Source: an uncultured Gammaproteobacteria bacterium
Lineage (GTDB): Bacteria > Patescibacteriota > Patescibacteriia > Magasanikbacterales > UBA922
Assembly (NCBI GenBank): GCA_964433095.1
Contig: CAYSPW010000002.1
Coordinates: forward strand, 9,498-73,497
Length of the DNA: 64,000 nt
Direction of reading: 5' to 3'
The position numbers were made by a program, and so were the translations under genes. Under the pieces are notes generated by a model. It was not told the DNA's origin and did not search any database. It was given only the letters and a program-made list of their open reading frames with translations. Shown one piece after another: positions 2,505 through 63,960 of the stretch (positions within the stretch are counted from its first letter, which is position 1; each line of letters opens with the position of its first letter).

Positions 2505-3659
2505 GTGGAAGCAAGTATGGCTGACAACAACAACCAAGATTTGGCCGCCGAACTTAAAAAAGCTCTCCGCAAAGAGTCTCTTTTGCGAGATGCCAAGCAA
2601 AGCGACATTGAAAAAGTTTCAGAAGAAATATCCGAGCAGATCAGACAAGGCGCCGAAGAACTGACTCAAGACATGTTTGCCGACACCGATCCGACCGAAA
2701 ATGAACAAATTGATCGGAGTGAAACCGAAACTACTCGCGAGACCGCGCCTGAAACCGACGCCGCGGCACCCGGCGCCGCCGAGCGGACAAGACCGGCAAT
2801 TGATTCTGAAAAACCTTCGTTTCCCGAACAGTCTATAGACAGAGCAAGAAATGCGGCCGCGACGCCGGAGGAAACGGAACCATCCACCGAAACGTCCCGG
2901 CCCGATCAACAACCGGAACAATACCGCCCTTTTGAACAGGGTCCGGAATTGATTGAATCCGAACCGACTGAAAGAAGATCAGACCAAAATGAACAGCCCG
3001 AACCTCAGACTGCCGAAGAAGAGATGACCGATCAAAAAGAAAACGCCGCCCGACTGAGAGCTGACAGAAGAAAAAGCGACTTGACGCGTCAGCGAAAAGG
3101 AGATGGAATGGACGCGGAAGAATTCGCCCGAAAACATAATGTGGATCTGGAGGGCAATGTGAGTGGCGATCCGAGAGCGGCAGCAGCCGGTAAAGTGGGA
3201 GAGGTTTTTGGAAAAGAATTAAGTCGCAGAATCGCCACCGGCAGCTTCCGTGCCTTTGCCATCGCTTTGACACTCGCTCTGATCAAAGACGGAGGCGATT
3301 TGGTGGGTTTGGCCGATGCCGGAACCTTCACATACATGATTCTAGGTTCAGTTGACCTGATGATAACCGCCGCCCTTTCATTTATTATCGCCAGCCAAAC
3401 AGGATGGTTGAAGATGAAAATCCAGAAAGTGTTTATTAGAAAATTCGTCGGTTCCATAGTCATTGAATTACTACCTTTCGGCGAATTTATTCCACTCTAT
3501 ACGGTTATGATACTACTGCTTAAACGTGACGCGGACCGCGACCGCAAAAAACATCAAAAAGCACAAGGGGATCTGCAACAACAGATGAAAAAAATCAGCC
3601 GGCGGTCAATTCCCAAAGGCCGGCAGCTGCAGCGAGTAACGGCTGCAATGGGGGGATAA
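2505..3659 (+). CDS. hypothetical protein, acidic low-complexity N-terminal region (E/T/P/A-rich) with C-terminal transmembrane helices
   Basis: ORF with biased composition; hydrophobic segments near C-terminus (FRAFAIALTLALI, MILGSVDLMITAALSFIIAS, FVGSIVIELLPF). Confidence 0.5.
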   Translation: MEASMADNNNQDLAAELKKALRKESLLRDAKQSDIEKVSEEISEQIRQGAEELTQDMFADTDPTENEQIDRSETETTRETAPETDAAAPGAAERTRPAIDSEKPSFPEQSIDRARNAAATPEETEPSTETSRPDQQPEQYRPFEQGPELIESEPTERRSDQNEQPEPQTAEEEMTDQKENAARLRADRRKSDLTRQRKGDGMDAEEFARKHNVDLEGNVSGDPRAAAAGKVGEVFGKELSRRIATGSFRAFAIALTLALIKDGGDLVGLADAGTFTYMILGSVDLMITAALSFIIASQTGWLKMKIQKVFIRKFVGSIVIELLPFGEFIPLYTVMILLLKRDADRDRKKHQKAQGDLQQQMKKISRRSIPKGRQLQRVTAAMGG

Positions 3660-3688: not shown

Positions 3689-4909
3689 ATGGACAAAAAA
3701 CGCATCGGTTTAATAATACTATTCTCTTTGGTTTCGGTTATACTGGCCTATGCCATGTACAGAATATTTTTTTATCAACCGGCACGGCCGAGTGAACCGA
3801 CCGCTCCTGGAGAAATCTCGCCCGGAGAAGCTTTTCCCCGGGCCGGTGAAGGAGAACCGAGGCGTCCGGGCGTCACTCAACCCGGACGGCTGCCCGCCGG
3901 AGAAGCGCTCGCTCCGGAACAAGCCGGACCGGCAGTTACAACGGAAAAGCTTGGTGTGCGAGTGGTGGATAATATTGTGGATAACGCCGGCATTGATCCG
4001 AGCGGCGACATGAAATTTTACTCTCGCCAAGACGGTAAATTTTATCGCTACAGCGATATCGGCGGAGTTGAACCTTTGACCGACCAGGTTTTTTACAATG
4101 TGGAAAAAGTCACTTGGTCGCCGACCAGAAACGAAAGCATAATTGAGTATCCGGATGGCTCCAACATTTATTACAATTTTGACAACAAAAAGCAGACTAC
4201 CCTTCCCAAACACTGGCAGGAATTTGACTTTTCTCCGACAGGCGACCGAATCGCCGCCAAAAGCATGGGTTTGTCGCCGGAAAACAGATGGTTGGTGACC
4301 TCTGATCCGCAAGGTTCAAGTATCCAAGCGATTGAGCCGCTTGGAAGCAACGCCGACAAAGTGATCGTGGATTGGTCCCCCAACCGACAGATTGTGGCTT
4401 TATCCACCACCGGCGAAGCATTGGGTGGTTACCGGCAAGAAGTTTTGTTTATCGGCTTACATGGAGAAAATCTGCCCTCCACGATCGTAGAGGGCAACGG
4501 TCTGCAAACCTCTTGGTCGCAAAACGGACAAAAGCTGCTCTACAGCGTTTATTCGCCACGCAGCGAATACAAACCCGAGTTATGGGCGGTGAACGCCGAA
4601 GGTCAAAATATCGGTACGGAAAGAAAAGCGCTTAATGTCAATACCTGGGCGGAAAAATGCACTTTCCAGGACGACAGATATGTATATTGCGGTGTACCCG
4701 TAAATCTTAATACCGGTGCCGGCTTTAATCCTGAAATGGCCGAATCGACGATGGACGAAATCTATCGCATAGACACCCAAACCGGATTAAAAACATTAAT
4801 TGAATTGGATAGCGTGCACACGGTGGATAACATATTCATCGGTGACGACGGCCACACATTGTATTTTACGGATAAAAATACGGACGGCCTCTTTTCAGTT
4901 GATATTTAA
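3689..4909 (+). CDS. membrane-anchored protein with Pro-rich linker and PD40/TolB-like beta-propeller repeats
   Basis: N-terminal TM helix, P/G/E-rich linker, repeated W-S-P/D-x-S-P-x-G-D motifs typical of PD40 propeller blades. Confidence 0.55.
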   Translation: MDKKRIGLIILFSLVSVILAYAMYRIFFYQPARPSEPTAPGEISPGEAFPRAGEGEPRRPGVTQPGRLPAGEALAPEQAGPAVTTEKLGVRVVDNIVDNAGIDPSGDMKFYSRQDGKFYRYSDIGGVEPLTDQVFYNVEKVTWSPTRNESIIEYPDGSNIYYNFDNKKQTTLPKHWQEFDFSPTGDRIAAKSMGLSPENRWLVTSDPQGSSIQAIEPLGSNADKVIVDWSPNRQIVALSTTGEALGGYRQEVLFIGLHGENLPSTIVEGNGLQTSWSQNGQKLLYSVYSPRSEYKPELWAVNAEGQNIGTERKALNVNTWAEKCTFQDDRYVYCGVPVNLNTGAGFNPEMAESTMDEIYRIDTQTGLKTLIELDSVHTVDNIFIGDDGHTLYFTDKNTDGLFSVDI

Positions 4910-4917: not shown

Positions 4918-5559
4918 ATGCCGAGCGTAAAAAAACTACTCATAATTTTCATACCGGCAATTATCATCGCCCTGGTGACTCTTAGTATAAGGGTGTTGCA
5001 ATATATTCCGACTGAAACAAAAGCGGTGGAACAAACCGATTCGGTTTATCAATCACTGATCCCAATTTTTGAAAACGACCCTATATTGGGTTCAAAAAAA
5101 GCCGGCCATACCGTAATAATCTTCGCCGATTTTGCCTGCGAAGCATGCGCGGCCCAAGATAAAATACTGGAAGATCTGATGAAAAAACATCGTGGACAAA
5201 TCAAGGTAATATGGAAAGGACTACCGGTGGCGCGTTTTCCTTTCAACTCACTGGAAGCGCATCGTTACGCCTATTGCGCCAATGAGCAAAACAAATTTGA
5301 ACAATTCGCCAAACTGACCTACACCAACTCAGACAATCTGTCAAGCGCCGCTATCGGCAGAATAGTCAATGAAATCGGCCTTGATCAAGAAAAAATGAAG
5401 CGCTGTTTGGAATCAAACCGGCCGGACGAACACATTGAATTAAACAAGCAGTTGGCCTCCTCTTTAAACATACAGGCCGTTCCGGCTATTTTTTACAATA
5501 ACAAACAACATAAAAGCCCACGGATTATTGAACAGTGGGAAGCTTTGTTAAATCTTTAA
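4918..5559 (+). CDS. DsbA/thioredoxin-like thiol-disulfide oxidoreductase, membrane anchored
   Basis: N-terminal TM helix; CxxC motif (FACEACAAQD) in thioredoxin-like context. Confidence 0.7.
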   Translation: MPSVKKLLIIFIPAIIIALVTLSIRVLQYIPTETKAVEQTDSVYQSLIPIFENDPILGSKKAGHTVIIFADFACEACAAQDKILEDLMKKHRGQIKVIWKGLPVARFPFNSLEAHRYAYCANEQNKFEQFAKLTYTNSDNLSSAAIGRIVNEIGLDQEKMKRCLESNRPDEHIELNKQLASSLNIQAVPAIFYNNKQHKSPRIIEQWEALLNL

Positions 5560-5561: not shown

Positions 5562-8306
5562 ATGGCCAAGTTTTTACAAATTTCTACCCTGGCGGTATTG
5601 ATTTCCACAGCAATATTTGATTTCATCCCGGCACGAGCCGCCACCGATTTTACTTACAAAACCGAGATCGCCTCCACCCCGCTCGGCGCGAACGTACAGC
5701 TGGTGGAATACGATACCGCCTGCCCTACCGGAAACGATTCCGGCTCCGATCCCAATCAAGGAATAATTATTACCAGAAACGCGGCCAGTCAAGTACGGGA
5801 AATATACTTTTACTTTCCCGGCAACAATGCGTCCGGAGTGGATCGGGAACCGGAAGATGTATGTTATTCAAATAACACCAAACTCTGCGACATTGTGAAC
5901 AACAATCAAAACTTGGCCATAGTGGCTTTTAACAAAAGCGTATCACCGCGCAACACCCGACAATGGCTGCAAGAACCGGAACACATGCGCTGTTTCATTA
6001 ACGAAGCCAAGAATAAATTAAGAGAACTGGGCGTGTCTTCCAATCGTTTGAATCTGGCCGGACACAGCGGGGGGGGACTGCAGGTCCTGCGCGCAACCAA
6101 AAATTCAGGCTTGAGCTTCAGCCGCGGCATCTTTTTTGACGCTTGCTACGGAACACAATGTTCGGACGCGGCCGCCACCGGCAGAACCGGCGACCTTTTT
6201 ATCTATTATCGGGCCGATTCCGATACCGAACAGGATTCGGTAAATACCAAAGACGGCTTTGCCGACAAAGTCAAGCTGGTCCAAACAACGGCCGCGCACG
6301 GATCCATTCCGCAATCATGCTTTTTGGATCATCTTGATAACAGTCTATGCGACGGCACCGGCACTGAGATCGGCACTCCGTTTGCGGGCGAAGCGCCACC
6401 GACCACCGAAGTTTCACCCGCCCCGGCCGGTTCCACACCGAGCGACGCGGCCGGCACAACTGACAGCTACTATTCCCAATCAGACATACAGGAATTGATT
6501 AGCGCACCACAGCCGATAATTAACATTCCCGGTCTGCAATTTTCCGATGCCGACCTGAGCCGTCTTTTCACTACCGACTACGATGAATTCGGCCGTGAAA
6601 ACACCTATTACTACTTCCCTTTCCTGGGTGAATATCTGGCCGCCGCCTACCGCTATGCCGTCGGTGCCGCCGCCATTCTGGCCATCGTGATAATTATCAT
6701 ATCCGGACTGCAATGGGCAGCTTCGGCCGGCAATCAAGAAACCATCGGCTCGGCCAAAAAGAGAATTTTTGGAGCTTTAATCGGCTTGTTTTTGGCTGTC
6801 GGTTCCTACACCATATTGTATACCATCAATCCCGAACTGACGGAATTTGCCAGTCTGAAGGTTTTAACCATAAAAGGCGAAGCGATTAATCTGGAAGGTC
6901 CTTCCGGAGACGCGGAAGAAGAAGCGGCGCGCCGCCTGCGGCGTGAAGACACTCCTCTCGGCACCACTGTTAGCGGTTCGCGACTTTTTCAACCTCCGAA
7001 CCAAGACAGCTTTTGCTTTCCGGTAGCCAAAGACGGATATGTAAAAAATACCAATAACTGGGGTCAATCCAGAGTTAAAAAAACCGGGGAAAGGGTGCGC
7101 TGCCACGCCGGAGTGGATCTGTTAACGGACGGAACCAATAACAGAGGTACGGTTTTATCAATGACCGACGGCGAAGTGATGCTGATCAGCCGCCGTTTTA
7201 CCGAATGTAAAGACGGACGTACCGAAAAAACCGGTCCCGGAACTTATGAGTGGGTGGGAGCGATATATGTCTATGACAGAAGAAACAATTTCACATATAT
7301 CTATGGCGAAATTAACAATGATACCATCAAGGTAAAAAAAGGAGATATGGTAAAAAAAGGACAAACACTCGGAATAGCATCCAAATGCACCATGCTGCAC
7401 CTGGAAGTATACGCGGGCAAAGGCAGAAAAACCGGCACTTCGATGTACGTAAGCGCCTTTGGCAAGAAAAAATCCGGCTGGTATTTGTTTGACGAACTCA
7501 AGGAACCACTTAACCTGCCCGACCAATTAAATCAAGGAAGAAACATCTGCGCTCAAGATCCGTATTTGCAAATATTGAACAAAACCGGCTCTACTCTTCT
7601 TGATCCGCGACAGTTTTTAAACAACATCAAAGACAATTTTTGCGAACCGGATAAATACTACGCTCCGCCGGCCGATACCGACGTGGAGCTCGCGATCCAG
7701 CAATTCTCTGCCTGCCACGGAATCGACTGGCGCGTTTTCAGGGAAACGGCCATGGCTGAAAGCTCGCTCCGTCCGCATGCCAAACTGGGACGATATTACG
7801 GTCTTTTTCAAGAAAGCGAGACTTATTGCAAAGAAGGATTGCGTTACGGTGATTACTCCATTGTTGGATTAAGCGTCGATAACTGCGAGAACGGATCAGC
7901 GGACGATCTAAGTGGACGCTTTGATATTCGCACCAATGTGGCCGCAGCCGCCGGATATATAAATTTTTTACTGCAGAGAATAGACAGAAAGTGCCCCGGC
8001 ATCAGCGCTTACGACGGCTTGACTTTGATGTATATCGGCCATAATAACGGCATTGGAGTAATGACCAGAATAATTACAAATATGAATGACGACAATGTAG
8101 CCTGCAACATGTCCAATATTTATCGTTACACTCGCGACTATTACATTGAACGCGGCGGCTCTGCTCATGGAGTTACTTTGCAGGAAGCTATGCGCAAATA
8201 TAATCATGGAAAAACATATATCACCGATGTACTTTTCGGCGCCAATAAAAGCGCTCCGCTTGATGTGATATTTGTGGGTAAAAATCCGCAATTGTGTCCG
8301 GATTAA
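5562..8306 (+). CDS. multidomain secreted/membrane cell-wall hydrolase: esterase-like N domain (GHSGGG), two TM helices, M23 (LytM) peptidase, SLT lytic transglycosylase
   Basis: signal peptide after internal Met (MAKFLQISTLAVLISTA); G-H-S-G-G nucleophile-elbow motif; hydrophobic helices (AILAIVIIIISGL, LIGLFLAVGSYTILY); M23 motifs (RCHAGVDL ... CTMLHLEVY); SLT-like catalytic region (AMAESSLRPHAK...YYGLFQ). Confidence 0.7.
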   Translation: MAKFLQISTLAVLISTAIFDFIPARAATDFTYKTEIASTPLGANVQLVEYDTACPTGNDSGSDPNQGIIITRNAASQVREIYFYFPGNNASGVDREPEDVCYSNNTKLCDIVNNNQNLAIVAFNKSVSPRNTRQWLQEPEHMRCFINEAKNKLRELGVSSNRLNLAGHSGGGLQVLRATKNSGLSFSRGIFFDACYGTQCSDAAATGRTGDLFIYYRADSDTEQDSVNTKDGFADKVKLVQTTAAHGSIPQSCFLDHLDNSLCDGTGTEIGTPFAGEAPPTTEVSPAPAGSTPSDAAGTTDSYYSQSDIQELISAPQPIINIPGLQFSDADLSRLFTTDYDEFGRENTYYYFPFLGEYLAAAYRYAVGAAAILAIVIIIISGLQWAASAGNQETIGSAKKRIFGALIGLFLAVGSYTILYTINPELTEFASLKVLTIKGEAINLEGPSGDAEEEAARRLRREDTPLGTTVSGSRLFQPPNQDSFCFPVAKDGYVKNTNNWGQSRVKKTGERVRCHAGVDLLTDGTNNRGTVLSMTDGEVMLISRRFTECKDGRTEKTGPGTYEWVGAIYVYDRRNNFTYIYGEINNDTIKVKKGDMVKKGQTLGIASKCTMLHLEVYAGKGRKTGTSMYVSAFGKKKSGWYLFDELKEPLNLPDQLNQGRNICAQDPYLQILNKTGSTLLDPRQFLNNIKDNFCEPDKYYAPPADTDVELAIQQFSACHGIDWRVFRETAMAESSLRPHAKLGRYYGLFQESETYCKEGLRYGDYSIVGLSVDNCENGSADDLSGRFDIRTNVAAAAGYINFLLQRIDRKCPGISAYDGLTLMYIGHNNGIGVMTRIITNMNDDNVACNMSNIYRYTRDYYIERGGSAHGVTLQEAMRKYNHGKTYITDVLFGANKSAPLDVIFVGKNPQLCPD

Positions 8307-8362
8307 TAATAAAAAAATAATAAAAAAATGCCCGCGTCAAGTGGGCTTTTAATTTATATAGT

Positions 8363-13470: not shown

Positions 13471-15186
13471 CTAGCTCGCGATGTGGGCTTCATGGTTGAG
13501 CTTCTCGAAGAACTGTCTGGGGGTATCATAGGAATCTAGAAAGCGGGGTCCCTTATTGTATGCTATGTTCCAGCACCAATATGCCGCACATGCCTGAAAC
13601 CAAGTCGGATTCTCATCCTCCAAATCAAACACTTCAAATACAGAACGGATTCTCTGGTCTGCATCAGGGTGAGTTCTCGATTCTATGTCTTCATCAAGTA
13701 GTAGAAGAGCAGAAACTGACGTGATTCCGCCTGTAATGACAGTAGAACGCTTCGATGATACAAGACTGGCTTCCTGCAAGACCTCGGCAGCATATTCATC
13801 AGCAGCAGTTTCGTCCTGTTTACTATCCTTCATCGCAGAAGGTTCAGTTGACGTATGACCAAGGGCGACATGACCAATCTCATGTGCAAGGGCAAAGATG
13901 GTGGCATACAACAGGATTCCGTTTACCTTCTCGATGTACTCATCTTGATCTGGGTCATACAACTCTGGATTTGGTAGGTTCTTGTCCCACTCTGAAAACA
14001 CTTTCTTGAGACTCATTGCATAGTGGAAGAGTTTCTCCGCCCTTTGCAGGTACTCTGGTCTTGGGGTCATGCCTTGAGCAGTTTTATTCATGCCTTCATC
14101 AGCAACCACAATGAGACAGTAGCACATACACCAAAGGTAGGACAGAAAGGTCTCGGAAATGGATATCTTCGTACCACGGACGTGAGGGAGCATGTTCTCC
14201 GCAAGGAGTGGGCTGTTTGAGATATGATAGTCAATTCCATTGTCGAGACCGTGGTTGGTAATGACCTCCAACCATTTCTCCAAGGCTCCATCATGGCAGT
14301 TTTCAAGCTCATGAATGATGTTGTGCTGTAGTACCCTCACGGGCTGTTCGCCTTTATGGACTTCTGCAAGATAGCGGTTGACTTTCATTTGATTCTCTAC
14401 CTCTTCACTGGGCTTCATTCCACCGTTGGTAAGCAGACCGCCTTTCTTCCAAGAAGAAATGTCATATTCTTCGCCTGCTAGGTAGTTCTCTTGCTCTTTG
14501 TCTAGTGTTAGATCTGCCGGTCCAACATAAGCTAACATATTAGTTGGTGGACCATGTAACCTCTTGAACTGAAATCCCTCTCTCACCTGAGACAGGATAT
14601 TGATCCGTTGCTCTGGTCTCGTTTCGTTGCAGTAACGAAGAACACTGTCCCACGTAAATATCTTAAGATCTTCATTTTCTAGTGTGACAAGTCGATCACG
14701 CAGTGCTCTATCATATTCGATGGCTTTGTCACGGCCAATCACTAACACGTATCTGAACTTGACTCCATTACTTCCCAGTGGCTTTCTGATTGGTTCGATG
14801 CGCCGAAGTACCTCGCTGGTATTTCGTTTGATAAACTCACGATAGGTGTTGATTTGCGACAGGGCCTCTGTTAGGTCGGCTGATTGAACCAATATGCCAC
14901 TACTACGCTTGCTTCGAAACAAGAGCTTCGAAGGTGTCTTGATTTCAACAATCACGAAATGCCACTTTGTTGAGCTCTTTGTCAAATATGCAAAGTCAGG
15001 TTTATCCGCGGTATCCAAACTGAACTGAGAGATGAGACAACGAAAGTGCAGATGGTGATTTAGAAGGAATGCTAGCGGCAGAGATTCTGGTTCCTCTTCG
15101 AATAGTCGCTCTCTCTTAGACTTGTATCGGCCAACATGCTTTCTAACTTTTGTCTTGGTGAAGTAGTCATCGAATCGATACTCCAT
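13471..15186 (-). CDS. fusion protein: N-terminal PD-(D/E)xK nuclease (Shedu/DUF4263-like motif PD...IVEIK) plus C-terminal HExxH zinc metallopeptidase (ImmA/IrrE-like HEIGHVALGH)
   Basis: motifs ADKPDFAYL...WHFVIVEIKTP and LAHEIGHVALGHTS read directly from translation. Confidence 0.55.
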   Translation of the reverse strand: MEYRFDDYFTKTKVRKHVGRYKSKRERLFEEEPESLPLAFLLNHHLHFRCLISQFSLDTADKPDFAYLTKSSTKWHFVIVEIKTPSKLLFRSKRSSGILVQSADLTEALSQINTYREFIKRNTSEVLRRIEPIRKPLGSNGVKFRYVLVIGRDKAIEYDRALRDRLVTLENEDLKIFTWDSVLRYCNETRPEQRINILSQVREGFQFKRLHGPPTNMLAYVGPADLTLDKEQENYLAGEEYDISSWKKGGLLTNGGMKPSEEVENQMKVNRYLAEVHKGEQPVRVLQHNIIHELENCHDGALEKWLEVITNHGLDNGIDYHISNSPLLAENMLPHVRGTKISISETFLSYLWCMCYCLIVVADEGMNKTAQGMTPRPEYLQRAEKLFHYAMSLKKVFSEWDKNLPNPELYDPDQDEYIEKVNGILLYATIFALAHEIGHVALGHTSTEPSAMKDSKQDETAADEYAAEVLQEASLVSSKRSTVITGGITSVSALLLLDEDIESRTHPDADQRIRSVFEVFDLEDENPTWFQACAAYWCWNIAYNKGPRFLDSYDTPRQFFEKLNHEAHIAS

Positions 15187-15207
15187 TCGCTGATGCCTCT
15201 AACATTT

Positions 15208-18200
15208 TCACAACCAATCACAGTACACCTTGAAATACTCCCCATCCGATTCCCAGGTGCAGGGATCATCCCCACCTTCATCGAACTCTCCGTCACAGTC
15301 ATTGTCCCAGCCACCCAACTCATAGTCGTGCATGGCAGGATTGTTCTGCTCTGACCCATCCGCCCACATCCAGAAGGTCGAGTTTGCCGGGCATGTGTTG
15401 GTTGTGTAGATGAAGAACACACCTCCGGCTTCCTCGCAGATCACTCGGGGATCGTTGTCGATGTTGTCGAAGGGGTTGTCGTCACAATCTCCTCCCAGTG
15501 TCTCGGTGCAGTGGGGATTCTCCGAAGGCTCACATGGCGCGACCTCACAGTAGCAGTCCCAATCGTTATCAATCTGGTCAGCTGTGAAATCTGAGTGACC
15601 GGCATTCTCTCCCGATTCATTGCTATCTATTGCACCATGTAGATCCTGTTGACACACCCCATTCCAACCCGCTTCGTGCTCAGGACAGAAAAGACAGGAG
15701 CTTTGGTTTGAAGTTCGTGCTCCACTGGCGTAGTATTCAACTCCATCGAAAGAAACTGCGAAAGAGGAAGTCTCTTTGCATTTGTCTGGGCCCAAGTCCG
15801 TCCAGTAGAAATCTCCTGTACGAGAGTCGCTAGCCGAGCCGATGTCCAGATAGTGGTCGGCGATGGTCACATCATCGTTACACCGGCGGAAAGCAAACCG
15901 AAAGGGGACGTAGGAGCGACAGTTGATGCAACCCTGGTAAGGAGCATCACCAGACCATATCTCTGGTAGGTCGTACTCCAGCCAGCCATCGCTATCTGTA
16001 TCAGATATCGCTATCTCAACGTGATTGAAGGTGTCATCAGCCCATCTACTCCAGCCAATCACACAGGGGGTGACGTTTTCAAACGGTGTTCCATCTTGGA
16101 GATCAAACTCTGTTGGCAGGATGAGGATTCTACCATTGTCATTCGGATCAAACCGAATCGCGCAGGCATTGTCCTCACACGGTCCGAGAGGTTCACAGAC
16201 CCCTGCAACACATTGCTCATTGAAGCCACAGGCAGGACAGGTCACCTCATCACCACATCCATTGTCCCAGGTACCACAGTCATGGCCGAGATCAGCGCAT
16301 GACTGAAGAGTACAACACTCGCCTTCGTAGCAGATATCTACCCCAGTACAATCACCACACTCCAGCGACATTCCGCAACCGTTGTCCGGTGTCCCGCATT
16401 CGCTCACCAGACACTCCCTGGGTACACAAACACAGAATCCATTCTGACATTCCTCTTGAGCGAGCTCGTCGCAGATTCCACATTCGAGGGTTTCTCCACA
16501 GCCGTCGGGCCACGGTCCACAGGAATTCGAACCTATCGCTTCGCAAGTCGTCGGTGTGCAACCTGCACAAGTATTACCTGAACAGCCATAGGTGCAGGTG
16601 ATCGCGTTTCCCCAGTCCAGACAGTCGTCTGGATCAAAATCGCCACATGTTTCCTCAATACCATCCACACAGCGGGTCTCGTCAATCATATCGCATTCGT
16701 CGGAGCAGGTGGTCACACATGTTCCTGTCAGGTCACAGGTCTCACCAATGCCGCATCCTCCGCACTCGAGAGTGTCACCACAGCCATTCGGCCAGTCTCC
16801 GCACTCCACCTGGAGACTGATGCAGGTGTCCGGAGCGCAGCATGAGTTTTCGTAGCAGACGCCATCCGGGCAAGAAGTTGGACTGCTCCATTCTAAACAT
16901 TCATCCTGGTCGTGGTTGCCACAGGTTTGGATCAGCTCTCCCGTACACTGAGTCCTTCCTTGGGGAAGGCAGTCATCGGTGCAAGTGTCTTGGCATTCGC
17001 CTCCACGACAAATTCGGTTCAGGCCACACTCAAGTCCATCAGTCTCAACAGGACAGTTCTGTTCTTCTGTTACACCTTGGCTGTAATCGCAAGATCCGTC
17101 TACACAGGACACTGTTGGTACATACCTAGATTGTGTGCCGTTCTCATCGCAGACATTCTCGATTGAAAGACACTCAGACCACTCACCGGGGATTGGCTCG
17201 GGACAGTCTGAAGCCTCGGTACACTCCGGCATATCACCACAATGAGAGCTGTCTTCGAAGTCTGCTATCGTGAGACTTGATTGTTGTTGTCCAAGCCACC
17301 TTCGGTCAACGCTGGATGGAATAGAAACGAAGTCTGTGACGATGTAACCAGCCCGAGCAAGTTCTGCCTGGCTCATGTTGAGCTGTCTGATCTCGTGGTT
17401 GAACAAAGTCACATAGTAGTTGCCTTGGTGTTTAAGGAGAAAGCCGGGGTGATAGGCAGCCTCTTCGACCAGCGATCTCTTCAGATCCCAGACTTCACCT
17501 CCTCCAAGCTCGGCATCTCTTCCCCAGCTAAGTGCCAGTTGTTCAAAGGTGCTTTCGTTGACCTTACCGACTTCGCGATCGTAGCTGAGTCCATCATAGT
17601 AAGCGTAGAGCGTTCCATTTCGCACAAACGCCTGAAAACTGACTGTTTCTGTAGCCAGATTGTATTCCTCACAGAGAGGATAACAACGAAGCTCCTCCTC
17701 TGAGACAAAGATATTGAGACCCAAATCGAACGCGTCTGGATCCTCAAGATTGTCTGGATTGGCAATGTAACGAAGGCAACCGTCTTCAAGAAGGTAGAGA
17801 CAGTTGACTTCACTATCTCCACCTTCGTGAACACAAAGGCCACTCTGGGTTTGAATGAGACTGCCATCAGGGTGCCAGAAGATACCTCTTTCTTCACAAC
17901 GACCGTTAACACAAGTCGACTCAGCACAGTCTACCAACAACGACCCTCTCTCCTCACATGAATTGTACCAGTATACATCACCCTCATAACATCGGAAGTC
18001 TGCTCTAGGAGTACATGGAGTAGGACATTCTGGATCCTCAGTATCTACCAAACCATCGCAGTCGTCATCCAGACCATTATCACAGAACATCTCCTCATCA
18101 AGACAATCGCCTCCAGTCTCCTCTCCGACACGGAACTGAGTGACGTAGTCTGGGATGTCATACTGTCGATTATCCTCAGTATGTACGAACATATCTATTT

Positions 18201-19659: not shown

Positions 19660-19712
19660 CTCGCTTGCTCCTTCTTAACGTCTATGTACATGCCACCACC
19701 TGATATCTTCAC

Positions 19713-20447
19713 TCAGTATTCCACACTAGACACGATCTGCTTGAAAACTTGATAGAGTTCGTTGCTCTCTATCTGTCCCAGCAGTTCTTGATTGCATCCA
19801 TGGATATCCTGGTATGTGTATTTGCCGGTGATATCGTCTGATTTGAGTAGTGTGCCAACATTAGAAAGATAGACTACGAATAATACGTTCGGGTATTCCT
19901 TTGTTTGGTTCTGAACCAGTCCCTTCAAGTACACATTCGAAAGCGAAGGTTTCCTTAAGTAATCCTCACTTTCTCCGTAGTCAAAGAAAACCTGATATAT
20001 GAAGGCGTTATTGGATACTACTTCAGGATCACAGTGGAGATCTTCGTTCTCGGATTCGAGTTGTTCCCCCAATGAACCATTGAGTTCAAATTCTCGTGCT
20101 CCAAAAGATGGCGAATATTCACTCGAGCCAATTGATACATCCCACGTTTCAGCCCGAATGTAGATAGATTTTCCTGTTTCCTGGTGACGGAGAGTGATTC
20201 TGATCACCCTACCTGAATCACCATCATTGGACGATTGAACAAGATTTGTACTTTCTGTGTCTTCGATTTCCCAACTATTAGGATAATGAAAGCGGATATC
20301 AAGTTCTTCATTATAATAAACATTTAGGTTGTCTGGATTCCTTTCATCTTTCAATGCTGGAGACTCGCACGCAACACAAAATAGCATCACTGTAAGGGTG
20401 AATAGGGCAACGAGTATTACGCTGTAAATTTGCGGTTGTTTCATGTT
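19713..20447 (-). CDS. hypothetical secreted/lipoprotein-like protein (start at MKQPQIYSV, signal peptide ending ...LFCVAC)
   Basis: N-terminal hydrophobic signal with Cys after it; no family recognised. Confidence 0.45.
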   Translation of the reverse strand, partial: NMKQPQIYSVILVALFTLTVMLFCVACESPALKDERNPDNLNVYYNEELDIRFHYPNSWEIEDTESTNLVQSSNDGDSGRVIRITLRHQETGKSIYIRAETWDVSIGSSEYSPSFGAREFELNGSLGEQLESENEDLHCDPEVVSNNAFIYQVFFDYGESEDYLRKPSLSNVYLKGLVQNQTKEYPNVLFVVYLSNVGTLLKSDDITGKYTYQDIHGCNQELLGQIESNELYQVFKQIVSSVEY

Positions 20448-20502
20448 GTATCCTTTGATGTCATTTAGACATGACGCGATCGCTGTGTCAGTTCGCTTGT
20501 CT

Positions 20503-23034: not shown

Positions 23035-23083
23035 TCGAGCCTCCTCTTGAGAGATTCTAGCAAATGCTGCCAGCCAATAAATG

Positions 23084-23902
23084 CTATTTTCGTGGCATCT
23101 TCAGTTTCTTGAGCTTTGCCCTTTTCTTCTTCTTACCCCATATGTTCTTAGTTTTTCTTTGTTGAGTCGAAAATTCATATACTATCTCCTCATAGGTCAG
23201 GCCTGGATGTATTACAGGAATTGCCGATCGCGCAAACTTCTGTTTCAAAGAGAGCTCACCAGATTTGGGTAAGATGACGCACGCGAGATCATACATTCTA
23301 AACTTCAAATCACCACGAACGCGCCATTCTCGCTCCCAAGTGAAATCGTATCTCTCATGCATGGCGTTGATAAAAGGAAGAAGTCTCCATATTTTACCCT
23401 TATGGAAGCCACCTTTTTTTGCAACGTTGAACAGACTATCGACAGCTTCACGCAACCACGTATTATCATTGTAGCTGTTGATGTAAATGGCCGGCTGAGC
23501 GCCCTTTGAAATAATGAACTCGCGACTGAACACGAACCCATACTCCTCGAACTGGTTATTTCGACCTGGAATACGTTGAGTGAGTAGATGAATTTGTGTG
23601 AGTGGAATCTCCGAAAAGCAACAAACACTGAACCTCTCTTGATACCTATCTGGTATGTCCTTCGCAAACAAGCAGTGAGGTAGATAGGCTGAGATTTGGC
23701 GTTCCTCAAGAATTGCGCGAAAGTTCTCTTTTGCTGACCCACCCGACTCACCAAACGTATTTGTATCGTTCCGTGTTAGGTGAACCACGAATTTCGAGAT
23801 GTCTTCGCGTCCGCTGACAGCAAATCCTCTTGAACCCATGACAAGACCAGAAGTAGATTTTGTGATAGCGCAGCAGTTAAGAGTACTTGAACATACGGCC
23901 AA
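23084..23902 (-). CDS. hypothetical protein, DarT/AbiGi-like abortive-infection family candidate (H ... Y-G-F-V-F ... E-R-E-W-R order)
   Basis: FVVHLTR, VCCFSEIPL, YGFVFSREF, WEREWRVRG segments; resemblance judged from memory only. Confidence 0.4.
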   Translation of the reverse strand: MAVCSSTLNCCAITKSTSGLVMGSRGFAVSGREDISKFVVHLTRNDTNTFGESGGSAKENFRAILEERQISAYLPHCLFAKDIPDRYQERFSVCCFSEIPLTQIHLLTQRIPGRNNQFEEYGFVFSREFIISKGAQPAIYINSYNDNTWLREAVDSLFNVAKKGGFHKGKIWRLLPFINAMHERYDFTWEREWRVRGDLKFRMYDLACVILPKSGELSLKQKFARSAIPVIHPGLTYEEIVYEFSTQQRKTKNIWGKKKKRAKLKKLKMPRK

Positions 23903-23971
23903 GAGTCAACAGTACCACTGATTGCATGAAGTTCCCCTCCACAAGATTCCTACTTCTGCTACGATGATGGA

Positions 23972-24172: not shown

Positions 24173-24210
24173 TGTGGTGGAGTAGTATCCACTGGATAAC
24201 CTAACATCAT

Positions 24211-59426: not shown

Positions 59427-60005
59427 CTATTTCCAGTAAAGCCCGTCCACTTTCCACTCTCCGTATTGTTTAATCAGATCAATTGTACCGGACAGATTTT
59501 CCACTTCCTGAGAATCCGCCGTTTCGGTAATTCTTTGCGCTTCCAGCTCCAATTCCGCCATGGTATCGGTTAAGGACAATACTCTGGAAGCGATGACCCG
59601 GGTAGTGACGCCGCGGTAATCGACCGACTGTTCCTCCCTTTGCGTATTCATCCACGCGGCCATTTTATCGGTAACCAAAGGCAGAGTATCTTCTACGTGT
59701 CGGTTGTCGTTTTGGTTGGAATATGTGCCGAAGCGCTCCACGAAAATTCTAGCCATTTGCTTGACATAAATATCTTCACTGTAGGGTTCGGTCCGCGTCT
59801 CGCTCGGCATTTGTCGGCCCATTTGTTCGCGCACGTCCCGGTCAATTTGTTCAACTTCTTGCTCGGCCGTTACCGGTTCGGCTTGCCGGTCGGTCTCAGG
59901 CGCCTGTTCGGATTTGAAAAAAAACATATACAGAAGCAAAACCGACAGCACTATACCCACGACAATGCCGACAACCATAAATATTCTTTTTCTAATATCC
60001 ATCAT
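59427..60005 (-). CDS. hypothetical membrane-anchored protein (single N-terminal TM, acidic periplasmic domain)
   Basis: ORF adjacent to VirB4-like gene; no family recognised. Confidence 0.4.
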   Translation of the reverse strand: MMDIRKRIFMVVGIVVGIVLSVLLLYMFFFKSEQAPETDRQAEPVTAEQEVEQIDRDVREQMGRQMPSETRTEPYSEDIYVKQMARIFVERFGTYSNQNDNRHVEDTLPLVTDKMAAWMNTQREEQSVDYRGVTTRVIASRVLSLTDTMAELELEAQRITETADSQEVENLSGTIDLIKQYGEWKVDGLYWK

Positions 60006-60016
60006 ATATTTTAAAA

Positions 60017-61894
60017 TTATGTTTCTTGTTTGCGCAACACTTCTTGTTCAAATTCTTTTTTCGCTTTTTCAATCTCCAGCAGCTGGCTCGGATCCGAGGT
60101 TATCAATTGGTCTTCGGTATACGAGGCCACCACTTTAATGGCCGCGTGCTTGAGGCCGGCGAAAAATATTCCTTCTCCGACAGCGCTTTCCAGCAGCAGA
60201 TACTTCTCTCCTTCGGTCAGCATGAATGTTTTTTGAATCATATCCACCGATGCCGGAGACTGGCGCAGCAATAGCTGCAGCGCCGAGTTGGTTACGATCG
60301 CCTGTCCATATTGCGAACGCAAAAAGTCATTCACGTCTTGCGTAATGGTGGTTACTCCCAAATAGTATTTTCTGGCCCTTTTTACCAAAGCATATATGAA
60401 CTTGGCCGAATCTTCATGCGTCATCAGCCACCAGGCCTCGTCAATCACCAGAATGCGTTTTTTACGCTCCGATCGGACCACGTTCCAGATATAGTTTATC
60501 AAATTATAAATAGCCATTGGGCGCAACTCGTCTTCCAGATCGCGCACGCTGAACACCACCAGCTGGTTTTGCATGTTGACGTTTGTCGGTGAATTAAACA
60601 AGCCGGCAAAGGTACCTTCGGTAAATTTTCTCAGCTTCAAGGCCAAATTTTCCGCTCCTTCCATGCCTTCCAAAATATCCAGCAAATCCTGCATGATCGG
60701 CGGATCAATCGCGGACAAATCCGACTCGGCCGTGATATCCTTTTTGGCGTAAGTTTCAAGCAGTGCCCGATCCATGATTGAATCTTCTTGCGGGGTGAGA
60801 GAACCGAACATAACCCTGATCAGCCCTTTCAGTGTAATGACCGCGCTACGGATGACGTCTTCGGTGGATATCTGCTGACCCACCGGCCGCGGCAGATCAA
60901 ACGGATTGACTTTGCTTTCCGAAGACAGGGAAATGTTTACATATGTCCCTCCCACCGCTTCGCTCAGATGCATATATTCCATTTCCGGATCTATTATTAT
61001 TATATCCACTCCAAACATCAATGAACGCAGCACTTCCAGCTTGACCGCGTACGATTTGCCCGCGCCCGAGGTGGCGAAAACCACCATGTTGGCGTTCTGC
61101 AAAGAAAAACGATCAAATATTATCAAGCTGTTGTTGTGCCGATTTATGCCGTAGAGTATGCCATCGTCGCTGGTTAGTTCAGACGATATAAAAGGAAAAG
61201 AAGAGGCAATGGGCGAGGAATTCATGTTAAAGGTGATCATCAGCTCGTCAATACCGACCGGCAAGGTGGAAGTGAACCCTTGTTCGGACTGATACAAAAC
61301 ATGCTTGGTGTAAATCAGCTTGGAGGAAAAAATATTTTCCACGTCTTCGGTAATCTTATCCAACTCTTCTTTGGATTTGGAATAAACCGTGACGTAAAAA
61401 GCGAATTGGAAAAAATGCTCTATGCCCTGGGTCAGATCGTCGCGCAGCTGCTCAATATCGCGCAAGGCTGTTTCGCGCAACGGGTCGCGCGGCGCTCCCT
61501 TTTCCGCGTCCGCGGTCAATTGAGCGGACAAAGCACCAACCTTCTTTTTTAATTGTTTTAATATTATACCCGCGGGAACCGGATAAAAGAACATGGAAAC
61601 GTCCATGGTAAAATTCAAATTTAAAATCGGAGAGCTCCAGCCGACCGCTATATACCGCGGAAAAGTGATCACGAAAATGGTGCGTAGATAAATATCTCCC
61701 AGCTGCACGAAATTGGATTCCACTCGGAAAGCGGACGGCGCGATCAAATCACGAATAGCTACCGTGCCTTCGCGGAAAACTCGCTCTTCTTCCAAAGTGA
61801 TTAACTGCTCCTTGGTTTTCTCCTCTTGTTCCTTGGCTTTTTTTTTGGATTTTTTTTCTTTCTTGTCTTCGGTTGTAATTGGTTTAAACGGCAT
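60017..61894 (-). CDS. VirB4/TraC/TrbE-family type IV secretion ATPase
   Basis: VirB4-like N-domain (IAPSAFRVESNFVQLGDIYLRT), Walker A FATSGAGKSYAV, Walker B region ILVIDEAWWLM. Confidence 0.8.
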   Translation of the reverse strand: MPFKPITTEDKKEKKSKKKAKEQEEKTKEQLITLEEERVFREGTVAIRDLIAPSAFRVESNFVQLGDIYLRTIFVITFPRYIAVGWSSPILNLNFTMDVSMFFYPVPAGIILKQLKKKVGALSAQLTADAEKGAPRDPLRETALRDIEQLRDDLTQGIEHFFQFAFYVTVYSKSKEELDKITEDVENIFSSKLIYTKHVLYQSEQGFTSTLPVGIDELMITFNMNSSPIASSFPFISSELTSDDGILYGINRHNNSLIIFDRFSLQNANMVVFATSGAGKSYAVKLEVLRSLMFGVDIIIIDPEMEYMHLSEAVGGTYVNISLSSESKVNPFDLPRPVGQQISTEDVIRSAVITLKGLIRVMFGSLTPQEDSIMDRALLETYAKKDITAESDLSAIDPPIMQDLLDILEGMEGAENLALKLRKFTEGTFAGLFNSPTNVNMQNQLVVFSVRDLEDELRPMAIYNLINYIWNVVRSERKKRILVIDEAWWLMTHEDSAKFIYALVKRARKYYLGVTTITQDVNDFLRSQYGQAIVTNSALQLLLRQSPASVDMIQKTFMLTEGEKYLLLESAVGEGIFFAGLKHAAIKVVASYTEDQLITSDPSQLLEIEKAKKEFEQEVLRKQET

Positions 61895-61906
61895 AAATAA
61901 CTTTTT

Positions 61907-62593
61907 TTAAATGTTTTCAACCTGCAACTCTTCTATCGGCTGCAAAGATTCGGCAAAAGATATATCCGGATTGTAAGTGGAATAATACAATTCTATCAAG
62001 GCTTGCGTGTCAAGTTGGACCACTGACAAACCCATCGTCTCCAAGCCGCTTATCACCTGTCTCACCCGCAGATCCAAATCATATTTCCTCTTTTTAAACT
62101 TTTCCTGCCTCAAGCGCAAAGTCAAAGCCGGTTTCAGCACTTCTTTGAACCTTGACCAAAAGCTTTTCTTTTTGTTGCTCAGCGGATCGTAGGGTACCAC
62201 CACGAAAAATTTTTTGGTCATGATTTGCCCGATTTCCACCATCTCTTCCACAAAAGCGCGATAGTCGGCAATCTGCACCCGCAGCAGCTCATTAGGCTGC
62301 TCTTTCTCCGCCCGCACCAACTTTTCCAAATACGGCTTGACGCGCAAACGCCGAGACTGCACCACTATTTGAAGCGGAAAATCAATGGAATTCAAAAAGC
62401 TGACATAAGAAGAAATCAAAGCATTCTGTTCATCCTCGGACTTGAGCGCGAAATTGATGCTGGAAGTAATCAATACCGCCCGTAAAGTGCCGTCTTTGAG
62501 CACCAAGACTCCTTCTTTGATTTCGGAAAAAGGCAGATAAGACTGGGTGGACGGCCGCTTTTGTTTTTTTGCTTTTTTCTTTTTATCCTTCAT
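61907..62593 (-). CDS. hypothetical protein, T4SS-associated by context
   Basis: 228-aa ORF between PrgI-like and VirB4-like genes; basic N-terminus. Confidence 0.4.
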   Translation of the reverse strand: MKDKKKKAKKQKRPSTQSYLPFSEIKEGVLVLKDGTLRAVLITSSINFALKSEDEQNALISSYVSFLNSIDFPLQIVVQSRRLRVKPYLEKLVRAEKEQPNELLRVQIADYRAFVEEMVEIGQIMTKKFFVVVPYDPLSNKKKSFWSRFKEVLKPALTLRLRQEKFKKRKYDLDLRVRQVISGLETMGLSVVQLDTQALIELYYSTYNPDISFAESLQPIEELQVENI

Positions 62594-62599
62594 AAAAAT

Positions 62600-63049
62600 T
62601 TATCTGTTACTTCTTTGAAAATTATTGGCGCCGGCATAATATCCGCCCGTATTTACGATCAGCGATAGATCCCTGATATGCGTGCGCCCGGCTCTTTTGC
62701 GTTCTTCCGCGCTCGGAGCGGCTTTCTCGGTGCCTGCTTCGCGCAGAAATTCAAGCTCTTTCTTGCTGTAGGTCTTGTACCAAATACGCAGACCGGGCTT
62801 GCGCAAAGTCTGTAAAATATTCAAAACCAGATAATGAAAAGGTTGCCCGCCAATCTTGACGAACGCGAACAAAATGGCGATTCCCAAAACAACCACCAGC
62901 ACACCGATAAAATATGAAAAATCCAAAAACCGGTAAGCCAAAAAGATAAAAACCCCGGCCACGAGCAAAATTAAAAATTGCCGGGTGGTAATCGGTCCGA
63001 ATATCTTATCCTCCACGTCAATAAATTGCGGCACCACGAACTGCTGCAT
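62600..63049 (-). CDS. PrgI/VirB3-like small membrane protein
   Basis: N-terminal FIDVEDKIFGPITTRQF motif followed by two TM helices, as in PrgI-family proteins. Confidence 0.55.
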   Translation of the reverse strand: MQQFVVPQFIDVEDKIFGPITTRQFLILLVAGVFIFLAYRFLDFSYFIGVLVVVLGIAILFAFVKIGGQPFHYLVLNILQTLRKPGLRIWYKTYSKKELEFLREAGTEKAAPSAEERKRAGRTHIRDLSLIVNTGGYYAGANNFQRSNR

Positions 63050-63051
63050 AG

Positions 63052-63960
63052 CTATAATTTCAACTTGTTATTAAGATCAATTAAAGCCAAAAACTCATTC
63101 ATTTTTAAATTCCTCTCTTTGCCTTCAGTCAAAATCTCGGCTATTTTACGATCACTCATCAAAGACGCCTTGATCACCGCTTGATAGCTGCGGTACAAAG
63201 GGTTGTCAAACCAGGCCTCAAGCGCGTCCAGATAGAGCAGATAGGACTCTTGCTTCAGCACGGTAAACTTGTCCATTACCATATCCGCGGCCACTTGGGG
63301 ATCTTTGGCCAAGCGCCTAAAATCGGTCAAAGAAAAGGTGGCCATCTCTTCCACCGGTCCCATGGCGCGGCTCTCGCTCTCCGGATCAACCACGTCCCGC
63401 ACCACCGGCTTCAATTCTCTGACATCCACGCGCGTGGGGGGAAAGCTTTTATCCGCTTGCGAAGTGTCCGGTTGAGGCACACGCGCGGATGATTCGGCCG
63501 CTTCCTCGGGCGGAGGTTCGACCGCCTCCGACTTCAGAGCGCGGATATCTTTGCCATGCCTTTGCATCACCGTGTGAATGGCGGCCAGCAATTCCCTGAC
63601 ATTATCTCGGCTCAAGTCCAAGCCGCCTTCGGATTGATGTTTTTGGGCGTATTCCAGCAGCTGATCATCGCCGCGCACTCCTTTGACCCGAGTGGTGATA
63701 AGCATATCAAGACGCCCCCGCAATTCCGGACTAACCTCAAATTCCAGCTCGGACGCGATCTCATCCACCATGTCGGCGTAGCTGTTGACCACGCCGCTTT
63801 CCGGTTCGGACGCTTTGACCGCCGGCCGCCGCTCCACTTGAGCTGAAGGCTTTTGTTCGGTTCGGGTCCGCGGTTTTTCCGCCTTGGGCAATTGTGTTTC
63901 AGCTTCGGATTTTCGCTCGGGTTGCGGCTTCATTGCCGCGGTCGACGGTTCCTGCTTCAC
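63052..63960 (-). CDS. hypothetical protein (P/E/K-rich N-terminus), T4SS-cluster context
   Basis: 302-aa ORF co-oriented and abutting PrgI-like gene. Confidence 0.35.
   Translation of the reverse strand: MKQEPSTAAMKPQPERKSEAETQLPKAEKPRTRTEQKPSAQVERRPAVKASEPESGVVNSYADMVDEIASELEFEVSPELRGRLDMLITTRVKGVRGDDQLLEYAQKHQSEGGLDLSRDNVRELLAAIHTVMQRHGKDIRALKSEAVEPPPEEAAESSARVPQPDTSQADKSFPPTRVDVRELKPVVRDVVDPESESRAMGPVEEMATFSLTDFRRLAKDPQVAADMVMDKFTVLKQESYLLYLDALEAWFDNPLYRSYQAVIKASLMSDRKIAEILTEGKERNLKMNEFLALIDLNNKLKL

Follow-up and report, generated by a model that had tools for sequence, protein, structure and literature searches.

Described here is a gene within a 64,000-nucleotide stretch of DNA (contig CAYSPW010000002.1, positions 9,498 to 73,497 of the forward strand; termed here the window) from an uncultured bacterium of the patescibacterial order Magasanikbacterales, the product of which (termed here the hydrolase) joins predicted cell-wall-degrading domains to a membrane hairpin of the kind found in pilins of type IV secretion systems (T4SSs). 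An initial annotation had read this product as a tri-functional envelope hydrolase, in which a Pro/Thr-rich linker and two hydrophobic helices separate an N-terminal alpha/beta-hydrolase-like domain from an M23 endopeptidase and an SLT-type lytic transglycosylase. The linker and the helices are both present, but on the sequence evidence the helices are best read as a VirB2-like pilin unit, a common chassis for wall-degrading enzymes, rather than as mere separators. The hydrolase is a T4SS-type multi-domain wall hydrolase whose anchor is a pilin module, whose M23 site is unusual and which carries an additional esterase, and it is best read, by analogy, as a functional counterpart of VirB1 and PrgK built on a VirB2-like pilin hairpin. 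Probably it depends on DsbA, is anchored by its pilin-type hairpin and serves the T4SS of Patescibacteria (the candidate phyla radiation, or CPR) as a component that breaches the wall.

The VirB2-like pilin module and its family

The two helices are taken to be a pilin unit because (i) they coincide exactly with a match to the T4SS_pilin family PF18895 (22.7 bits, E=1e-4, against a gathering cutoff of 26.6) and also match the NCBIfam model 'Mbov_0395 pilin-like conjugal transfer protein' (E=8e-4); (ii) they belong to a module that runs through an entire protein family; and (iii) the core of the module profile also matches short stand-alone pilins, among them a 161-residue protein encoded directly after an SLT fusion in a related locus (L069). 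The module is a segment of ~130 residues that is common to all of the homologs P0002-P0011, whatever their enzymatic domains, and that consists of an IPGLxFSD motif, a beta-hairpin, a first helix, an SxGNxxxIxxAKKRI loop, a second helix and an INPELVxF motif; over 11 proteins that otherwise have little in common, its columns are on average 55% identical. The TrbC/VirB2 family (PF04956) matched weakly to two of ten scanned hairpins (in loci L075 and L081), and no second copy of the module was found within the 64-kb window; short pilins, if the genome has any, are encoded elsewhere.

An exhaustive search of 1.84 billion cluster representatives with a profile of the module yielded 55,885 matches at E<=1e-3, 14,491 at E<=1e-10 and 409 at E<=1e-30. 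Nearly all of the best 150 matches are 300-1,150 residues long, and within them the module starts anywhere from residue 5 to about residue 400. When 91 module-profile matches were scanned with Pfam, T4SS_pilin was detected in 74 (E<1e-3, best 6e-10; a few above the cutoff), and the accompanying cargo comprised Amidase_2 (15), SLT (13), VanY (8), Peptidase_C39_2 (7), M15_4 (7), M23 (5), NlpC/P60 (4), M15 (3), CHAP (3), GH18 (2) and glucosaminidase (1), as well as Lipase_GDSL_2 (8), Abhydrolase_3 (1) and Exo_endo_phos (1). The cargo of this family is overwhelmingly peptidoglycan hydrolases, of almost every class, plus esterases. The additional esterase module to which the initial annotation drew attention is therefore present as a fold but is not unique to this protein, inasmuch as alpha/beta or GDSL esterases recur in the family. 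Other proteins, including P0024 (1147 residues), P0020 (820 residues) and P0125 (822 residues), are 'poly-pilins' with 7-11 tandem pilin hairpins and no recognisable enzyme.

Hydropathy and charge predict a leader followed by two helices that form a hairpin, its loop being short and basic and both protein ends lying outside (the corresponding model helices are H29-63 and H68-98). Because the protein has a signal peptide and two hydrophobic helices, with a K/R-rich loop between acidic flanks, the loop is predicted to be inside and both enzyme-bearing flanks outside; all 20 cysteines of the hydrolase fall within predicted extracytoplasmic parts.

The VirB2-like pilins of CPR bacteria (PF18895; e.g., SEML1_0014-0019 of Southlakia epibionticum) share with the hydrolase a two-helix hairpin, a short positive loop and a match to the same profile, and such genes lie near VirB4/PrgI in many genomes. 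Classical pilins, however, are ~100-200 residues long and consist of a leader and hairpin only, whereas the hydrolase carries ~280 residues of cargo on the N-side and ~470 on the C-side of its hairpin, and its module has the additional extramembrane motifs IPGLxFSD and INPELVxF and a PF18895 score below the cutoff. With 914 residues and large cargo on either side, the hydrolase does not have the form of a small pilin subunit.

The three enzymatic domains

The open reading frame is uninterrupted on the forward strand from either of two starts, GTG 5535 or ATG 5562, to 8306, and use of the ATG would yield a canonical signal peptide. Patescibacterial homologs share 41-53% identity with the hydrolase. 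Apart from a database entry that is identical to it (P0001), these include a 661-residue Magasanikbacteria protein (P0002, 53% identity) and P0003, which has 913 residues and all the domains of the hydrolase in the same arrangement (41% identity across 89% of the query); the set P0002-P0011 includes relatives more distant than these two. A search of the PDB with the full-length sequence gave no match. The Pfam check proposed in the initial annotation did detect M23 (PF01551, 24.6 bits) and SLT (PF01464, 13.1 bits), but both under their gathering cutoffs (28.7 and 21.3), and it detected no abhydrolase. Because the curated-family scores of the hydrolase alone are weak, each weakly scoring domain was examined by alignment, structure prediction and fold search. 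These recovered both the M23 and the lytic transglycosylase folds and placed GHSGG within an alpha/beta-hydrolase fold.

In the N-terminal domain the GHSGGG motif (residues 167-172) occupies the nucleophile elbow of that fold, as had been proposed. The model puts the serine at the junction between strand E136-142 and helix H143-155, the aspartate after strand E162-166 and the histidine after strand E211-216; this order, Ser-Asp-His after successive strands, is the canonical one. GHSGG, the aspartate and the histidine are invariant in five divergent copies of the domain. Sequence searches with this domain are nearly empty: no abhydrolase, cutinase or lipase family was matched at E<=1 in Pfam or NCBIfam, a single-sequence search gave no match at E<=0.01, and a search with a five-sequence profile gave P0012 as its sole match. 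For this reason it is the fold search that carries the esterase claim, and the subfamily is not nameable by sequence. Esterases of the CE1, esterase-D and LipA types (4ezi, 5vol, 8bbp, 7l0a, 3h2g) have in common with the domain a compact alpha/beta-hydrolase core, a G-H-S-x-G elbow and a Ser-Asp-His triad, but they are only 9-16% identical to it, and the domain differs in having eight cysteines and no Pfam or NCBIfam family match. The domain is regarded here as a serine esterase to which no substrate is assigned; an O-acyl group on a wall polymer is plausible and a lipid is possible.

O-acetyl groups on the C6 of N-acetylmuramic acid (MurNAc) block lytic transglycosylases, and SGNH esterases such as Ape1 remove them. 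Co-occurrence of the family's esterases with other domains was assessed with local profiles among 251 non-redundant module proteins, using tests that ignore phylogenetic non-independence. GDSL esterase and SLT were found in one polypeptide in 15 of 26 cases, well above expectation (odds ratio 19, p=1e-9), which for the family's GDSL enzymes supports a logic of O-acetyl removal. The alpha/beta-hydrolase module shows no preference for SLT (odds ratio 1.3), tracks the variant M23 domain described below (odds ratio 8.8, p=0.006) and occurs together with GDSL in three proteins. An Ape1-like role for the N-terminal domain, as an O-acetyl-peptidoglycan esterase that frees the MurNAc C6 hydroxyl for the lytic transglycosylase, is not supported by the odds ratio of 1.3 and counts as one option only.

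The SLT-type domain that the initial annotation had recognized from ESS...YYGLFQ stands up well at the level of structure. Foldseek matches a lysozyme-like, lytic transglycosylase fold to MltE and MltF (probability 0.98-1.0), the predicted local distance difference test score (pLDDT) of the model being 80-90 in this region, and the invariant residues AESS (Glu733, Ser734) and GLFQ (within residues 732-750) align to TESR...GMMQ of T7 gp16 and to IESG...GLMQ of MltE. The ortholog P0002 scores 35.2 bits, which is over the PF01464 cutoff. The predicted fold and motifs would suit either a lytic transglycosylase or a muramidase and do not decide between these chemistries.

The M23 domain is more unusual. 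Its fold is recovered within a moderate model (mean pLDDT 63.7 over residues 325-914), with Foldseek matches to Csd3 (4rny, E=1.1e-4) and to the M23 domain of phage 2638A (6yj1, E=1.1e-3), both at probability 1.0; the ortholog P0002, at 26.4 bits, likewise falls under the PF01551 cutoff. Active-site residues were assigned both by a profile-to-PDB alignment and by alignment with two canonical M23 domains--that of a paralog in locus L044 (97 bits to Pfam) and that of a second M23 protein encoded in the window--and the two assignments agree. The HxxxD zinc-ligand motif is present within RCHAGVD (residues 513-519), where His515 and Asp519 are invariant and align to canonical M23. The HxH motif, however, reads Met-Leu-His (Met611, His613) as against the canonical HLH, and the equivalent of LytM H260 is Glu583 (YGE as against YAH or YGH); both the Met and the Glu are invariant in the subfamily, which, with flanking cysteines, is seen in P0002, P0003, P0004 and P0006. 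Compared with M23 endopeptidases of the LytM/lysostaphin type (LytM, Csd3, ShyA, the phage 2638A endolysin), the fold and the zinc triad His-x3-Asp...His are shared, whereas the Glu, the Met and the cysteines beside both ligand motifs are not. Judged from these residues, the site defines a distinct, non-canonical subfamily that keeps its zinc ligands and whose activity is not decidable in silico. The endopeptidase of the initial annotation is thus sustained as to fold, HxxxD motif and zinc ligands but not as to the two auxiliary histidines, and 'tri-functional' holds for three folds but as three functions is unproven, given that the M23 domain lacks two catalytic histidines and that the LytM domain of PrgK provides a non-catalytic precedent.

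Invariant cysteines stand just before the first zinc-ligand histidine (RCH, 7098-7118) and two residues ahead of Met-Leu-His (CxMLH, 7386-7406). Their positions suggest a disulfide that would clamp the two ligand-bearing strands together, in keeping with the adjacent DsbA gene.

Gene neighborhood and T4SS linkage

The genes upstream of the hydrolase are tightly packed, with gaps of 3-38 nucleotides, the shortest being that between the end of a DsbA-like gene and the hydrolase ATG (Table 1). These gaps, together with a hairpin after the hydrolase stop codon, suggest that hypA-hypB406-DsbA-hydrolase is one transcription unit. For comparison, 80 related loci were fetched from reference genomes and annotated locally with the proteins of the window, and counts are given over 82; the loci were retrieved by a peptide pattern biased to the Magasanikbacteria-type module, so that the fractions are not an unbiased census, and co-occurrence is uncorrected for phylogeny. 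Within 10 kb of a module gene, 65 of the 82 loci have a DsbA homolog and 14 have VirB4. The slot present in most close relatives is ClpB-(hypA)-hypB406-DsbA-[1-3 module proteins]-RadA...RecG (e.g., L001, L002 and the P0003 locus), and the ClpB, RadA and RecG of the window match Magasanikbacteria loci at E<1e-200.

The association with T4SS genes is most direct in L044 and L074, where T4y302-PrgI-VirB4N-VirB4C-T4x192-module protein(s)-hypB406-DsbA form one co-directional string that continues with a further module protein in L074 and with RadA in L044. In loci from Moranbacteria, Paceibacterota, Saccharibacteria and unclassified bins (L069, L075, L080 and L081), a fusion of the module to SLT, SLT_2 or SLT_3 is found downstream of VirB4, at a distance of ~1 kb in L075 and L081 and of ~4 kb in L069 and L080, and a hypB406-like gene follows the fusion in L075, L080 and L081. 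In L028, L042 and L050 the cassette and VirB4 are only 5-7 kb apart, on opposite strands. The initial annotation had remarked on VirB4 and PrgI genes at the end of the window, ~50 kb from the hydrolase; these genes are real, inasmuch as both exceed their family cutoffs. Because the cassette and VirB4 are contiguous in L044 and L074 and close in L028, L042 and L050, this distance is explained as a rearrangement, and the cassette of the window is best read as the distal part of a CPR T4SS cluster that in this lineage has been separated from VirB4. The likeness to hydrolases of the PrgK/CwlT/VirB1 class drawn in the initial annotation is borne out both by the domains and by this T4SS neighborhood in relatives.

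Several proteins of these clusters deserve attention in their own right. In the DsbA slot, and again in the VirB4 clusters of other CPR classes (L075, L080 and L081), hypB406 is kept beside module proteins, and this makes it a candidate new T4SS-associated component. Its sequence shows an N-terminal transmembrane helix and a region rich in proline, with no more than a faint hint of a PD40 beta-propeller; neither hypB406 nor hypA384, which is much less conserved, has a family or PDB match. VirB4 and PrgI are flanked by T4x192 and T4y302, both of them unannotated and in the same order in relatives; given its weak TraE/DotF hints, T4x192 may be the 'missing' VirB8-like part. VirB4 itself is split into two open reading frames. 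Of the 14 related loci in which VirB4 was matched, 11 have the split too (L028 and L050 end inside VirB4C, and gene order is unmapped in L073 and L079), so that it looks like a conserved feature and not a frameshift.

The slot often contains two tandem module genes with different cargo (L001/L003, 8185-11983; L004, L007, L008, L012, L016, L017, L019 and L020); in Magasanikbacteria Bin_289, for example, a gene for pilin, SLT and GDSL esterase is followed by one for pilin, M23 and SLT, and in other contexts (L063, L064) there are up to three tandem module genes. The single hydrolase gene of the window joins functions that elsewhere are split over two genes. Many metagenome-assembled genome records titled 'uncultured Gammaproteobacteria bacterium' (third-party annotation, TPA; L005, L007, L010, L012, L014, L016 and others) hold Patescibacteria-type loci, marked by ClpB-hypB406-DsbA-module-RadA and a CPR-type VirB4, and the titles of these records appear to be mislabelled.

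The window also contains a probable integrated mobile or defence island (13471-25868), situated after the hydrolase locus and ahead of the T4SS genes, and, nearer to the latter, a VanW-like gene, after which come a gene for Hsp20 and two for tRNA-Ser.

Table 1. Coordinates, within the window, of the hydrolase, its parts and other genes
Feature	Position	Strand	Remarks
hypA384	2505-3659	+	
hypB406	3689..4909	+	conserved membrane-anchored protein, cassette partner; present in most related loci
DsbA-like thiol-disulfide oxidoreductase	4918..5559	+	ends 3 nt ahead of the hydrolase ATG; Thioredoxin_4 81.6 bits, DSBA 51 bits
Hydrolase, whole gene	5562..8306	+	914 residues from ATG 5562; GTG 5535 start (NCBI-type call) gives 923 residues
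Predicted signal peptide, residues 1-26 (MAKFLQISTLAVLISTAIFDFIPARA)	5562..5639	+	hydropathy and A-x-A site, read from sequence
Alpha/beta-hydrolase (serine esterase-type) domain, residues 27-271	5640..6374	+	Ser169 (GHSGGG), Asp193 (FFDACY), His246 (AAHGSIP)
Pro/Thr/Ser-rich linker, residues 272-306	6375..6479	+	read directly from sequence
VirB2-like T4SS-pilin module, residues 307-440	6480..6881	+	PF18895, NCBIfam Mbov_0395, module alignment, profile
Parts of pilin module (predicted)			IPGLxFSD prelude; transmembrane helix 1, 359-387; cytoplasmic loop SAGNQETIGSAKKR, 388-401; transmembrane helix 2, 402-422; INPELTEF postlude
Variant M23 (LytM-type) domain, residues 483-695	7008..7646	+	His515, Asp519, His613 kept; Glu583, Met611 replace two auxiliary His
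Family-1 lytic transglycosylase (SLT) domain, residues 704-914	7671..8303	+	Glu733-Ser734; GLFQ 747-750
Terminator-like hairpin just past the hydrolase stop	8330..8346	+	consensus scan, weak: 18 sites vs 12.7 expected in shuffles
Shedu SduA_C + Peptidase_U49 fusion	13471-15186	-	
1483-residue protein	15208-19659	-	canonical N-terminal M23 domain
843-residue protein	20503-23034	-	no family match
AbiGi-like protein	23084-23902	-	
Large serine recombinase	24211-25857	+	end overlaps tRNA-Arg
tRNA-Arg	25794-25868	-	
VanW-like protein, 650 residues	54670-56622	-	PG_binding_4 domain; envelope/peptidoglycan-associated; near T4SS genes
T4SS core genes	59427..63960	-	Pfam, NCBIfam
T4x192	59427-60005	-	bitopic; TraE/DotF (VirB8-class) weak hints, E about 1e-3
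VirB4 C-part (ATPase)	60017-61894	-	349 bits vs cutoff 325
VirB4 N-part	61907-62593	-	
PrgI	62600-63049	-	36.1 bits vs cutoff 27
T4y302	63052-63960	-	no family match; order conserved in relatives

Proposed role, alternatives and significance

By analogy, PrgK is the closest characterized counterpart of the hydrolase. PrgK, from Enterococcus faecalis plasmid pCF10, is a membrane-anchored hydrolase with LytM, SLT and CHAP domains that is targeted to the T4SS via the VirB8-like PrgL; of its domains only SLT is active, as a muramidase, whereas the LytM domain, which lacks HxxxD and HxH, is inactive (PMC11323569). Both proteins are membrane-anchored and extracytoplasmic (the hydrolase by prediction), both combine M23/LytM and SLT folds with a third hydrolase domain, both associate with a monoderm-type (MPF-FATA-like) T4SS (in the case of the hydrolase, as proposed here), and in both the LytM site departs from the canonical one. 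They differ in that PrgK has a cytoplasmic N-terminal domain and a single transmembrane helix, whereas the hydrolase has a signal peptide and a mid-protein two-helix, pilin-type hairpin with cargo on both sides; in that the hydrolase keeps the three zinc ligands that PrgK lacks, with Glu and Met in place of the auxiliary histidines; and in that the third domain is CHAP in one and an alpha/beta-hydrolase in the other. The comparison makes no claim of orthology at the sequence level. VirB1, TraG (pIP501) and CwlT (ICEBs1) also resemble the hydrolase, through an SLT-type domain with a Glu-Ser motif, a peptidase and a presumed role in opening peptidoglycan for the T4SS, but their peptidase partner is CHAP or NlpC/P60, not M23, they have neither a pilin module nor an esterase, and VirB1 is a soluble periplasmic protein. 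As in hydrolases of the VirB1/PrgK class, the SLT and M23 folds are on the predicted outer side.

Beyond the folds, conserved residues and gene neighborhoods described above, the proposed mechanism would run as follows. The hydrolase would be exported by Sec and its signal peptide removed, and the two pilin-type helices would insert as a hairpin whose positively charged AKKR loop is cytoplasmic; because of this orientation, the esterase on the N-side and the M23 and SLT domains on the C-side would both face the wall. The adjacent DsbA-like enzyme would form disulfides in the Cys-rich ectodomains, and the hairpin module, which is homologous to short CPR T4SS pilins, would localize the enzymes to the site of T4SS or pilin assembly. 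There the SLT domain would cut glycan strands, the variant M23 domain would either cleave peptide cross-links by means of a Zn/Glu site or regulate the SLT domain, and the serine esterase would strip an ester-linked wall substituent. The outcome would be a local gap in the wall for the secretion apparatus or pilus; the wall concerned may be either the cell's own or that of a host, and the proposal does not decide between them.

Several considerations weigh against this mechanism. In most close relatives the slot looks like a housekeeping one (ClpB...DsbA-hydrolase-RadA), with VirB4 not within 10 kb, and in the present genome the hydrolase is ~52 kb from VirB4. The PF18895, M23 and SLT scores of the hydrolase itself are all under the Pfam gathering cutoffs, the model of its C-terminal part is only moderate, and its M23 site is short of two canonical catalytic residues. 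Contact between the hairpin and T4SS parts is only presumed, and the pattern bias of the locus frequencies and the kinship that the co-occurrence tests ignore bear on the argument from neighborhoods.

Some of these same facts would fit a housekeeping autolysin, in which a pilin-derived hairpin has been exapted as a plain anchor and which, with no part in the T4SS, remodels the wall of its own cell during growth or division. Reduced CPR genomes still require some autolysin, the base composition of the hydrolase region is ordinary (GC 0.455-0.50), and the slot by ClpB, RadA and RecG is conserved in ~60 loci, most of them without VirB4 within 10 kb. Such an explanation nevertheless seems unlikely, inasmuch as in L044 and L074 the cassette runs on from the VirB4 genes, and in other classes the homologous module::SLT genes belong to T4SS clusters; moreover, paralogs with unrelated enzymes conserve the module, extramembrane motifs included, which exceeds the needs of an anchor, and both copy number and cargo vary among close relatives (1-3 genes per slot, with shuffled domains), which is atypical of a core autolysin.

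Another explanation, to be regarded as improbable, is that the enzymes are directed at the host: the T4SS would extract the protein via its pilin module and either display it on or at the tip of the pilus or deliver it, whereupon the three enzymes would degrade the host envelope, and the family as a whole would amount to a polymorphic set of effectors, in which the delivery module stays constant and the cargo varies. Such an arrangement recalls that of polymorphic toxins, in that one conserved module is flanked by variable enzymes and occurs in tandem paralogs, and some of the cargo is not specific to peptidoglycan (GH18, Exo_endo_phos, C39-like peptidases, esterases). In the F- and T-pilus structures, both termini of VirB2-type pilins point outward. 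On the other hand, there is no evidence of polymerization, and cargo of the size present on both sides of the hairpin would be expected to hinder sterically the packing of a VirB2-type filament; nor was an immunity gene recognized adjoining the hydrolase, and the conserved chromosomal slot looks vertically inherited. The essentiality of the T4SS and of six small pilins for the epibiotic growth of S. epibionticum, where the role of the T4SS is unknown, also speaks for host-directed enzymes (PMC10633639; PMC11665869). Finally, a remnant of a phage or prophage tail lysin or endolysin, suggested by the occurrence of M23 and SLT pairs in phage tail lysins, by T7 gp16, to which the SLT profile matches best among PDB sequences, by a weak PHROG endolysin match (20 bits) and by the phi29 gp13 tail lysin, which ranks low among the fold-search matches, is very improbable and effectively refuted by the lack of any tblastn match among 50,697 phage records, by the absence of flanking phage genes, by the signal peptide and transmembrane hairpin and by chromosomal synteny that is conserved in more than 60 genomes.

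A wall-breaching component anchored by a pilin hairpin bears on what has been reported of CPR T4SSs. A survey of 3,035 Patescibacteria genomes, which used PF18895 to count VirB2-like pilins in 1,948 assemblies, reports VirB1 homologs as few, most of the systems being without a wall hydrolase of that type, and VirB8 as nearly absent; its authors conclude that pili can apparently be made without VirB1, and pilin-hydrolase fusions are not mentioned (PMC12102498). Lysozyme-like and M15B-like proteins are annotated at the T4SS locus of S. epibionticum, where no fusion is noted (PMC10633639), and a recent T4SS review treats CPR pilins as pilins only (PMC12857230). No description of the fusion family was found in the literature searched, many subscription papers being outside its reach.

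Patescibacteria make up a large share of bacterial diversity, and in the sole species tested genetically their T4SS and unusual pilins are essential. The variant M23 site, with its zinc ligands kept, its histidines replaced by Glu and Met and its conserved flanking cysteines, is by itself a small enzymological puzzle. If the host-directed explanation were true, the essential T4SS of S. epibionticum would be in part a feeding or attack organelle, and the tri-enzyme protein one of its effectors. More generally, 'VirB2 pilin' counts that are based on PF18895 by implication include many enzymes. The proposed wall-breaching role has a testable handle in Saccharibacteria, in which a homologous module::SLT gene neighbors VirB4. 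Fusions of a pilin-type hairpin to peptidoglycan hydrolases are numerous and span nearly all classes of these enzymes; in some genomes they stand directly downstream of VirB4 or in a cassette contiguous with it, and they are a concrete candidate for the missing wall-opening (VirB1-type) function of CPR T4SSs.

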